This document shows, one piece after another, positions 18,457 to 45,442 of a stretch of DNA of 64,000 nt. Every line of letters starts with the position of its first letter. The first letter of the stretch is position 1. Below the pieces are notes generated by a model that did not search any database, was not told the DNA's origin, and worked only from the letters and a program-made list of their open reading frames with translations. The position numbers were made by a program, and so were the translations under genes. Origin of the DNA: Escherichia coli (GTDB taxonomy: Bacteria > Pseudomonadota > Gammaproteobacteria > Enterobacterales > Enterobacteriaceae); assembly GCF_041886205.1 (NCBI RefSeq), contig NZ_CP169029.1, one strand, 5' to 3'.

Positions 18457-19194
18457 ATGCTGCAAAATATTCGAATTGTGCTGGTGGAGACGTCACACAC
18501 CGGCAATATGGGTTCTGTTGCCCGTGCCATGAAAACAATGGGATTAACCAACCTGTGGCTGGTTAATCCACTGGTGAAACCTGACTCCCAGGCGATTGCC
18601 CTGTCAGCAGGGGCCAGCGATGTGATTGGTAATGCTCACATCGTCGATACGCTCGACGAAGCATTAGCTGGTTGTAGCCTGGTGGTGGGCACCAGTGCAC
18701 GCTCCCGCACGCTGCCGTGGCCGATGCTCGACCCGCGCGAATGTGGTCTGAAAAGCGTCGCTGAAGCGGCAAATACCCCGGTGGCGCTGGTTTTTGGTCG
18801 CGAGCGCGTCGGCTTGACCAATGAAGAGTTGCAGAAATGCCATTATCATGTCGCGATTGCCGCTAACCCTGAATACAGTTCGCTGAATCTGGCGATGGCG
18901 GTTCAGGTTATTGCCTATGAAGTGCGCATGGCCTGGCTTGCAACTCAGGAAAATGGTGAGCAGGTCGAGCATGAAGAGACGCCGTATCCGCTGGTCGATG
19001 ATCTGGAGCGTTTTTATGGTCATCTGGAACAAACGCTGCTGGCAACCGGTTTTATCCGTGAAAACCATCCGGGGCAGGTGATGAATAAATTGCGCCGTCT
19101 GTTTACCCGTGCGCGCCCGGAAAGCCAGGAATTGAATATCCTGCGCGGGATTCTGGCTTCTATTGAGCAGCAGAATAAAGGTAACAAGGCCTGA
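18457..19194 (+). CDS. trmJ: tRNA (cytidine/uridine-2'-O)-methyltransferase TrmJ
   Basis: 245 aa SPOUT-family methyltransferase ([22 protein letters not shown]); divergent from suhB and upstream of iscR. Confidence 0.9.
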
Positions 19195-19217
19195 GGGCTA
19201 AGCCAGATAAGTGCACG

Positions 19218-19270
19218 GACGGTCCCCTCGCCCCTTCGGGGAGAGGGTTAGGGTGAGGGGAAGAGGCCAG
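19218..19270. repeat. GC-rich imperfect palindromic intergenic repeat (Box-C-like?)
   Basis: ggtcccctcgccccttcggggagagggttagggtgaggggaagagg, an imperfect CCCCTC/GAGGGG-type palindrome just after the trmJ stop. Family assignment is uncertain. Confidence 0.3.
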
Positions 19271-19339
19271 CGCTAATGCGAATAATTGCCCTCAACCCGC
19301 CCATGGTCTGGAAGGACAACAGGTACAAACGCCACGATA

Positions 19340-19494
19340 AAAAAATGGCACTGAAGGTTAAATACCCGACTAAATCAGTCAAGTAAATAGTTGACCAATT
19401 TACTCGGGAATGTCAGACTTGACCCTGCTATGCAATACCCCCACTTTTACAATAAAAAACCCCGGGCAGGGGCGAGTTTGAGGTGAAGTAAGAC
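19340..19494 (+). promoter_or_regulatory. isc operon promoter with putative IscR autoregulatory sites
   Basis: Two TTGACC hexamers (about 19391 and 19429) and AT-rich stretches upstream of iscR. IscR is known to autorepress through sites overlapping its promoter; exact sites were not resolved. Confidence 0.45.
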
Positions 19495-19983
19495 ATGAGA
19501 CTGACATCTAAAGGGCGCTATGCCGTGACCGCAATGCTTGACGTTGCGCTCAACTCTGAAGCGGGCCCGGTACCGTTGGCTGATATTTCCGAACGTCAGG
19601 GAATTTCCCTTTCTTATCTGGAACAACTGTTTTCCCGTCTGCGTAAAAATGGTCTGGTTTCCAGCGTACGTGGACCAGGCGGTGGTTATCTGTTAGGCAA
19701 AGATGCCAGCAGCATCGCCGTTGGCGAAGTGATTAGCGCCGTTGACGAATCTGTAGATGCCACCCGTTGTCAGGGTAAAGGCGGCTGTCAGGGCGGCGAT
19801 AAATGCCTGACCCACGCGCTGTGGCGTGATTTGAGCGACCGTCTCACCGGTTTTCTCAACAACATTACTTTAGGCGAACTGGTTAATAACCAGGAAGTGC
19901 TGGATGTGTCTGGTCGTCAGCATACTCACGACGCGCCACGCACCCGCACACAAGACGCGATCGACGTTAAGTTACGCGCTTAA
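19495..19983 (+). CDS. iscR: Fe-S cluster regulator IscR (Rrf2 family)
   Basis: 162 aa; [19 protein letters not shown] Rrf2 HTH and the three-Cys cluster-ligand region. Confidence 0.95.
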
Positions 19984-20094
19984 TAAAAAGAATTCAGAAT
20001 CAGGCCGGGGCGTATCGCGCTCCGTAAACACGGTCGTACATCCAGCCGGTAGCCTGGTTCCTTGCATTGAGTGATGTACGGAGTTTATAGAGCA

Positions 20095-44213: not shown

Positions 44214-45332
44214 ATGCATAACCAGGCTCCAATTCAACGTAGAAAATCAACACGTATTTACGTTGGGAATGTGCCGATTGGCGATGGTGCTCCCATCGCC
44301 GTACAGTCCATGACCAATACGCGTACGACAGACGTCGAAGCAACGGTCAATCAAATCAAGGCGCTGGAACGCGTTGGCGCTGATATCGTCCGTGTCTCCG
44401 TACCGACGATGGACGCGGCAGAAGCGTTCAAACTCATCAAACAGCAGGTTAACGTGCCGCTGGTGGCTGACATCCACTTCGACTATCGCATTGCACTGAA
44501 AGTAGCGGAATACGGCGTCGATTGTCTGCGTATTAACCCTGGCAATATCGGTAATGAAGAGCGTATTCGCATGGTGGTTGACTGTGCGCGCGATAAAAAC
44601 ATTCCGATCCGTATTGGCGTTAACGCCGGATCGCTGGAAAAAGATCTGCAAGAAAAGTATGGCGAACCGACGCCGCAGGCGTTGCTGGAATCCGCCATGC
44701 GTCATGTTGATCATCTCGATCGCCTGAACTTCGATCAGTTCAAAGTCAGCGTGAAAGCGTCTGACGTCTTCCTCGCTGTTGAGTCTTATCGTTTGCTGGC
44801 AAAACAGATCGATCAGCCGTTGCATCTGGGGATCACCGAAGCCGGTGGCGCGCGCAGCGGGGCAGTAAAATCCGCCATTGGTTTAGGTCTGCTGCTGTCT
44901 GAAGGCATCGGCGACACGCTGCGCGTATCACTGGCGGCCGATCCGGTCGAAGAGATCAAAGTCGGTTTCGATATTTTGAAATCGCTTCGTATCCGTTCGC
45001 GAGGTATCAACTTCATCGCCTGTCCGACCTGTTCGCGTCAGGAGTTTGATGTTATCGGTACGGTTAACGCGCTGGAGCAACGCCTGGAAGATATCATCAC
45101 TCCGATGGACGTTTCGATTATCGGCTGCGTGGTGAATGGCCCAGGTGAGGCGCTGGTTTCTACACTCGGCGTCACCGGCGGCAACAAGAAAAGCGGCCTC
45201 TATGAAGATGGCGTGCGCAAAGACCGTCTGGACAACAACGATATGATCGACCAGCTGGAAGCACGCATTCGTGCGAAAGCCAGTCAGCTGGACGAAGCGC
45301 GTCGAATTGACGTTCAGCAGGTTGAAAAATAA
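44214..45332 (+). CDS. ispG: 4-hydroxy-3-methylbut-2-enyl diphosphate synthase IspG
   Basis: 372 aa; conserved C-terminal Cys ligands (CPTCSR…GCVVNGPGE). Confidence 0.95.
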
Positions 45333-45442
45333 TAACGTGATGGGAAGCGCCTCGCTTCCCGTGTATGATTGAACCCGCATGGCTCCCGAAACATTGAGGG
45401 AAGCGTTGAGGGTTCATTTTTATATTCAGAAAGAGAATAAAC

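Follow-up and report, generated by a model that had tools for sequence, protein, structure and literature searches.

The GC-rich palindrome between trmJ and iscR of Escherichia coli is a BoxC copy at a site where BIME units stand in other alleles

Introduction

What is the GC-rich palindrome that lies between trmJ and iscR in this strain of Escherichia coli, and does it act on the isc operon that begins just beyond it? An earlier note on this DNA had described a GC-rich imperfect palindrome between trmJ and the isc promoter, had called it unlike REP, and had offered two readings of it, namely a terminator or insulator for read-through from trmJ and a copy of a dispersed repeat. In the window, by which we mean the whole 64-kb stretch of DNA that was analysed, iscR is followed by iscS, suhB lies divergently upstream, and the parts of the locus are the following.

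18457..19194, + strand: trmJ, an open reading frame of 245 amino acids that ends ...NKA-stop
19192..19315, unstranded: variable, allele-specific segment of 124 nt, which includes the trmJ stop codon TGA (19192-19194)
19316..19494, + strand: conserved region upstream of iscR (promoter and leader), identical to K-12 and outside the polymorphism
19495-19983, + strand: iscR

The palindromic string quoted in the earlier note was found at 19221-19266, within the interval 19218-19270 that had been marked, and with the trmJ stop ending at 19194 and iscR starting at 19495 its placement between trmJ and the isc promoter is confirmed.

Results

The palindrome matches the BoxC consensus

The family to which the palindrome was assigned has been described under several names over time: BoxC by Bergler et al. 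in 1992 and in the survey of Bachellier et al. in 1999, PIT by Hoyne et al. in 2000 and Hoyne & Maher in 2002, and TMECO by Holder et al. in 2015. TMECO was equated by the last of these reports with both BoxC (Bergler 1992) and the PIT elements of Hoyne and Maher (PMC4666352), and its consensus was given as 5'-CCCTCNCCC N3-6 GGGNGAGGG N3 GGGNGAGGG-3' (Holder et al. 2015, PMC4666352). This consensus specifies 24 bases and had one exact match in the window, at 19225-19259, while none of 100 dinucleotide-preserving shuffles contained a match. The core at 19225-19260 has the order CCCTCGCCC-CTTCG-GGGAGAGGG-TTA-GGGTGAGGG-G, and its parts are as follows.

19225..19260, + strand: BoxC / PIT / TMECO core, type A with one mismatched triplet, an exact consensus match
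19225-19233, + strand: block 1, CCCTCGCCC
19239-19247, + strand: block 2, GGGAGAGGG, separated from block 1 by the loop CTTCG
19251-19259, + strand: block 3, GGGTGAGGG, preceded by the second loop TTA (19248-19250) and followed by G

Blocks 1 and 2 form the hairpin CCCTCgCCCC-TTC-GGGGaGAGGG, an imperfect palindrome with a single G.A mismatch, and block 3 is an alternative partner of block 1 (inverted repeat I2, 91% complementary). The second loop TTA denotes type A, as opposed to CCG for type B, and together with the G.A mismatch between blocks 1 and 2 it places the copy in subtype 'A mm', which is the commonest subtype in K-12, where it accounts for 13 of the 23 catalogued copies (PMC4666352). 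The element is intergenic, its core starting 31 nt past the trmJ stop and ending 234 nt before the iscR ATG.

Folding was evaluated for the core and for its surroundings. As plus-strand RNA, the 41-nt core had a folding energy of -25.7 kcal/mol, which 1 of 200 shuffles matched (z = -2.8), and the wider region of 106-108 nt had an unexceptional folding energy (z -0.4 to -0.95, as RNA or DNA and on either strand). Exceptional folding of the whole region was therefore rejected, the 41-nt plus-strand RNA core alone being modestly unusual; because the wider region folds unexceptionally, the signal comes from family membership and not from thermodynamics. On the sense strand of trmJ, the G-rich half of the element (19236-19260) also reads GGGG-AGA-GGG-TTA-GGG-TGA-GGGG, which is a canonical G-quadruplex motif with four tracts. 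For DNA, a G-quadruplex was argued against by Holder et al. on NMR data (PMC4666352).

Searches for other kinds of signal at the element were negative. An intrinsic-terminator scan of both strands was negative at the element, and no promoter consensus was found there; the hairpin is followed by UUAGGGUGAGGGG / TTAGGGTGAGGGG, with no run of U or T, and does not qualify as an intrinsic terminator. An intrinsic terminator or promoter at the element was thus rejected on the negative scan. Rfam models gave chance-level scores only at the element (E >= 0.69), with no family at gathering score. The REP palindrome consensus (of the GCCKGATGCGRCG...CGYCTTATCMGGCCTAC type) had no match in the window at up to 3 mismatches, in agreement with the statement of the earlier note that the palindrome is unlike REP.

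Copies of the core are present in nearly all E. coli genomes

Of 5,426 complete E. coli genomes searched by blastn with a 57-nt core query, 5,416 had matches; the median genome had 18 places and the richest 31, in keeping with the roughly 20-30 copies expected of this family in an E. coli genome. The query was covered at >=80% in 5,407 genomes. For K-12, 23 copies are catalogued (PMC4666352). The search for further copies that the earlier note had proposed thus bears out its reading of the palindrome as one copy of a dispersed repeat. Within the 64-kb window itself, no further copies were found.

K-12 copies 7, 11 and 15 are identical to the trmJ-iscR core except for one loop base. Loop 1 of this copy is CTTCG and not CTTTG or CTCTG; otherwise there is no difference of substance except for a degenerate B arm and the absence of the element from the K-12 locus. 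Solo copies in K-12 lie 18-35 nt past the stop codons of tauD, adk and zntA in the sense orientation and of pstA in the antisense orientation, the last inside the pst operon, a placement that resembles that of REP.

An identical 36-mer is present between ytfQ and ytfR on a replicon of E. coli OHT76-1 (NZ_CP135245.1). This 'plasmid', pOHT76-1_1 (373 kb), bears the chromosomal genes ppa-ytfQ-ytfR and probably derives from the chromosome or arose as an artefact of assembly; the copy on it was accordingly discarded as a sign of mobility. The identical 36-mer also occurs at the trmJ-iscR locus of O157:H7 Sakai, on the same strand and with no other copy for hundreds of kb, and this identifies it as entry 29 of the 2015 Supplementary Table S8. 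Relative to NC_002695.2, the published Sakai coordinates are shifted by 135 nt, a difference attributed to the record version. These data indicate that the trmJ-iscR palindrome is an ordinary BoxC copy of a known family, and that this copy was catalogued in 2015 for O157:H7 Sakai.

The copy reads as the intact arm of a decayed inverted pair

To define the complete unit, 14 type-A copies were aligned, comprising the trmJ-iscR copy, 12 copies from K-12 and the ytfQ-ytfR copy of the OHT76-1 replicon. The 70% consensus of this alignment was G.GC.C...C.GT + core + GAA.A G...GC, and the aligned unit of about 60 nt agrees with the published BoxC length of 50-56 bp (PMC2267715). Comparison with K-12 extended the assignment to the right of the core, and the resulting features are listed below.

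19209..19273, + strand: full BoxC unit of about 60 nt, consisting of left flank AAGTGCACGGACGGTC, core and right flank AAGAGGCCAGCGC
19261..19287, + strand: composite-pair spacer AAGAGGCCAGCGCTAATGCGAATAATT, homologous to the 26-27-nt spacers of K-12 pairs
19288..19315, - strand: decayed inverted B-type copy, recognised from alignment with K-12 pairs, a score test and inverted repeat I1

The same architecture, an A-type copy, a 27-nt spacer and an inverted B-type copy, is present at three K-12 loci. When 19261-19315 was scored against the K-12 pairs fepB-entC, ygfF-gcvP and alx-sstT, z values of 12-15 were obtained and none of 300 shuffles scored as well, and against solo BoxC copies z was ~0. 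Inverted repeat I1 joins 19251-19262 and 19286-19297. In the B arm, the outer block GCCCTCAACCCG is retained and agrees with GCCCTCACCCCG at 11 of 12 positions; mutation has altered the middle block, which reads CCCATGGTC where CCCTCTCCC is expected; the loop TGGAAGG is retained; and the last block is gone at the junction with the conserved flank GACAACAGG. A minus-strand search with the consensus gave no match to the decayed B arm.

By blastn, the 58 nt to the right and the 39 nt to the left of the core were found in a single place per genome and in 1,431 genomes only, those with the BoxC allele, and the idea that the flanks are themselves a dispersed repeat was rejected on this result. The converse idea, that the core is flanked by unique sequence, was rejected by direct alignment with the K-12 composite pairs, which identified a diverged spacer and B arm. 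The folding energy is -77 kcal/mol (z -6.8) for an intact K-12 pair and -43 kcal/mol (z -0.8) for the composite of the window; with the decay of the B arm, the long hairpin of the intact pair has been lost. Judged from these alignments, the trmJ-iscR copy is the intact A-type arm of what appears to be a composite pair with a decayed B arm. Partial loss at 'palindromic' TMECO sites, and a tendency of inverted pairs to lose parts, have been reported by Holder et al. (PMC4666352).

BoxC and BIME alternate at the same boundaries

At the trmJ-iscR locus of K-12 there is no BoxC element; three BIME (REP-pair) units in tandem lie in the spacer, which is 451 bp long there and 300 bp long in the window. 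K-12 and the window share the sequence up to ...AAGGCC, in the last trmJ codons, and again from GACAACAGG (19316) to iscR, and 19192-19315 cannot be aligned with the K-12 BIME allele, which again sets the palindrome apart from REP as the earlier note had done. The composite BoxC element (19209-19315, ~107 nt) makes up most of this 124-nt variable segment. The remainder is the following stretch.

19192..19208, + strand: 17-nt stretch TGAGGGCTAAGCCAGAT from the trmJ coding end to the BoxC unit

Within it, TAAGCCAGATAAG weakly resembles the REP segment TAGGTCGGATAAG (10/13 matches), and 19192-19208 may be a REP remnant, a weak lead. Because the stop codon falls within the variable segment, the extragenic repeats supply the end of trmJ: in the BoxC allele the gene ends GCC TGA and encodes 245 amino acids (...NKA-stop), and in BIME alleles it ends GCC GAA TAA and encodes 246 amino acids (...NKAE-stop), with an extra C-terminal Glu.

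The BoxC allele was found in 1,431-1,432 of 5,426 E. coli genomes (26%), in one place each, the O157:H7 and O111 lineages included. Among 28 evenly spaced genomes sampled from those without BoxC here, one, two and three BIME units were present in 15, 9 and 4 genomes, with record spans of 373/374, 464 and 555 respectively (401 for the BoxC allele). An empty site was sought with a query of joined flanks, which was covered at >=80% in 0 of the 5,426 E. coli genomes. At trmJ-iscR the core is identical in far-apart lineages (O157:H7 and the strain of the window), and the spacer has changed.

The 12-mer TAAGTGCACGGA (19208-19219, in the BoxC left flank) is found again at trmJ-iscR in some BIME alleles of one unit, within the linker between the REPs (…GGCCTGTAAGTGCACGGAATCCCAGG…). 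This sharing may be chance, or may be a trace of recombination between BoxC and BIME alleles.

BoxC and REP/BIME (PU) are both families of dispersed, extragenic, palindromic repeats, they fill the same trmJ-iscR slot in different alleles with the same boundaries, and both supply the trmJ stop; however, their sequences are unrelated, and the third G-block, with its triplex potential, is a feature of BoxC. To our knowledge, no RAYT-type transposase is known for BoxC. Altogether, this analysis adds two points to the published account of the copy: it reads as a composite pair in decay, and the boundaries at which BoxC alternates with BIME here are identical and take in the stop codon of trmJ.

The three-block motif beyond E. 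coli and other elements of the window

Contigs of one genome per species were scanned with the exact three-block pattern, and the following results are from among the matches listed. Mitsuaria chitosanitabida (Burkholderiales) had at least about a hundred stretches with the motif, which was also abundant in a Methylomirabilota MAG and in Candidatus Contendobacter. The contigs of these motif-rich genomes are 61-70% GC, their loops and flanks differ from those of E. coli, and inverted pairs are often present. For the Methylomirabilota MAG, contamination was rejected as an origin of the motif, since its contigs are 66-70% GC with different loops and flanks. The occurrence in distant phyla agrees with the report in 2015 of the motif in '>260 genomes' and is therefore not new. 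That the blocks are so well kept in such distant phyla suggests either a factor that recognises the sequence specifically or a strong constraint on structure.

Elsewhere in the window, Rfam families at gathering score were the iscRS stability element (19984-20093, + strand) between iscR and iscS, the ryfA sRNA (27350-27654, - strand) and the sroE sRNA (45332-45423, + strand); no tRNA genes were found in the 64 kb. The iscR leader carries at 19459-19473 a hairpin, CCCCGGGCAGGGG, after an A-run, which is identical in K-12; read on the minus strand, this stretch has a terminator-like score (GCCCCTGCCCGGGGT + TTTTTATTGT).

Discussion

The data are best explained by a BoxC copy that is the intact A arm of a decayed pair of A and inverted B copies, carried as a passenger in a repeat-prone slot that starts at the trmJ stop, and we consider this account very probable. 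We infer that the passenger is vertically inherited and has no dedicated role in isc regulation. Since no terminator lies in the 31 nt between the trmJ stop and the element, BoxC is probably transcribed within the trmJ 3' UTR, where the transcript would fold into a 10-bp hairpin with one mismatch. In DNA, block 3 of the G-rich strand, when transiently single-stranded, could fold onto the hairpin of blocks 1 and 2 as a purine-motif intrastrand triplex; as read from the sequence, the register would be compatible, with 7 G·G:C triplets, 1 T·A:T triplet and 1 mismatched triplet. Oligonucleotides of the G-rich strand with one loop base different formed a purine-motif triplex in vitro by CD and NMR, and a BoxC/TMECO element blocked DNA polymerase in vitro; an in vivo DMS footprint detected no triplex protection (PMC4666352). 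Between strains, TMECO loci also varied markedly more than intergenic regions that served as controls (PMC4666352). In the published proposal, such a triplex would stall polymerase and lead to local sequence turnover at BoxC loci, of which the decayed B arm and the replacement polymorphism at trmJ-iscR could both be instances. Following that proposal, structure-forming potential plausibly drives local turnover at trmJ-iscR.

Several other explanations were weighed against the passenger account. In the main rival, BoxC might serve as a 3'-UTR module whose hairpin shields the 3' end of the trmJ mRNA from 3'-to-5' exonucleases, with BoxC and BIME alleles interchangeable; a putative alternative fold is the G-quadruplex GGGG-AGA-GGG-TTA-GGG-TGA-GGGG. 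REP hairpins are known mRNA stabilisers, either BoxC or BIME directly follows the trmJ stop in every genome with none empty, several K-12 copies (tauD, adk, zntA) sit in sense 18-35 nt past a stop codon, and the hairpin z of -2.8 is in keeping with such a role. However, the BoxC family has no orientation bias relative to genes, and permanent occupancy of the site is equally explained by ancestry together with rare precise excision, so that we regard a 3'-UTR module as unlikely. The reading of the palindrome as a terminator or insulator that blocks trmJ read-through into the iscRSUA operon draws on its position, 31 nt past the end of trmJ and ahead of the conserved promoter region of iscR, on the stable RNA hairpin (-25.7 kcal/mol), on the lack of any other predicted intrinsic terminator between trmJ and iscR, and on a slot that is never empty in 5,426 genomes. 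The likeness to a Rho-independent terminator lies in a GC-rich stem-loop just past a stop codon, but the U-tract that follows the stem-loop of such a terminator is absent at the BoxC copy and the scan was negative at the element; furthermore, 74% of E. coli genomes lack BoxC at trmJ-iscR, and other BoxC copies stand in either orientation, some of them upstream of genes. The PIT elements were reported by Hoyne & Maher (2002) to act neither as promoters nor as terminators and to leave RNA polymerase unaffected, as summed up in PMC4666352. A literature search on trmJ-iscR read-through returned nothing relevant. On these grounds the terminator or insulator role that the earlier note had put forward is not upheld, and we hold it to be highly improbable.

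A chance GC-rich palindrome in plain spacer DNA would fit the folding energy of the 106-nt region, which is not significant; the exact match to a 24-base consensus that 0 of 100 shuffles reproduced, and tens of near-identical copies in every genome, a multi-copy distribution, rule it out as an explanation, and its probability is close to nil. Two observations run counter to an entirely neutral passenger. The never-empty site could reflect selection for some structured repeat at the 3' end of trmJ, and the core, conserved while the spacer changed, could be under constraint. In a speculative extension of these points, selection would keep a palindromic, structured repeat in the slot after the trmJ stop, with BoxC and BIME as exchangeable 3'-end modules of the RNA that would bar exonucleases or dampen read-through and shelter the tightly regulated promoter of iscR, and the G-rich RNA might switch between hairpin and G-quadruplex; this we judge very unlikely. 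Were a selected slot to prove true, it would be the first demonstrated cellular function for BoxC.

Under the favoured account of an inherited passenger repeat, the element is of little importance in itself, since the family was described in 1992 and re-described in 2000-2002 and 2015. The locus offers a clean and well-populated case in which BoxC and BIME, two unrelated repeats, take each other's place at identical boundaries, stop codon included, and also what appears to be an example of an inverted BoxC pair in the course of decay.
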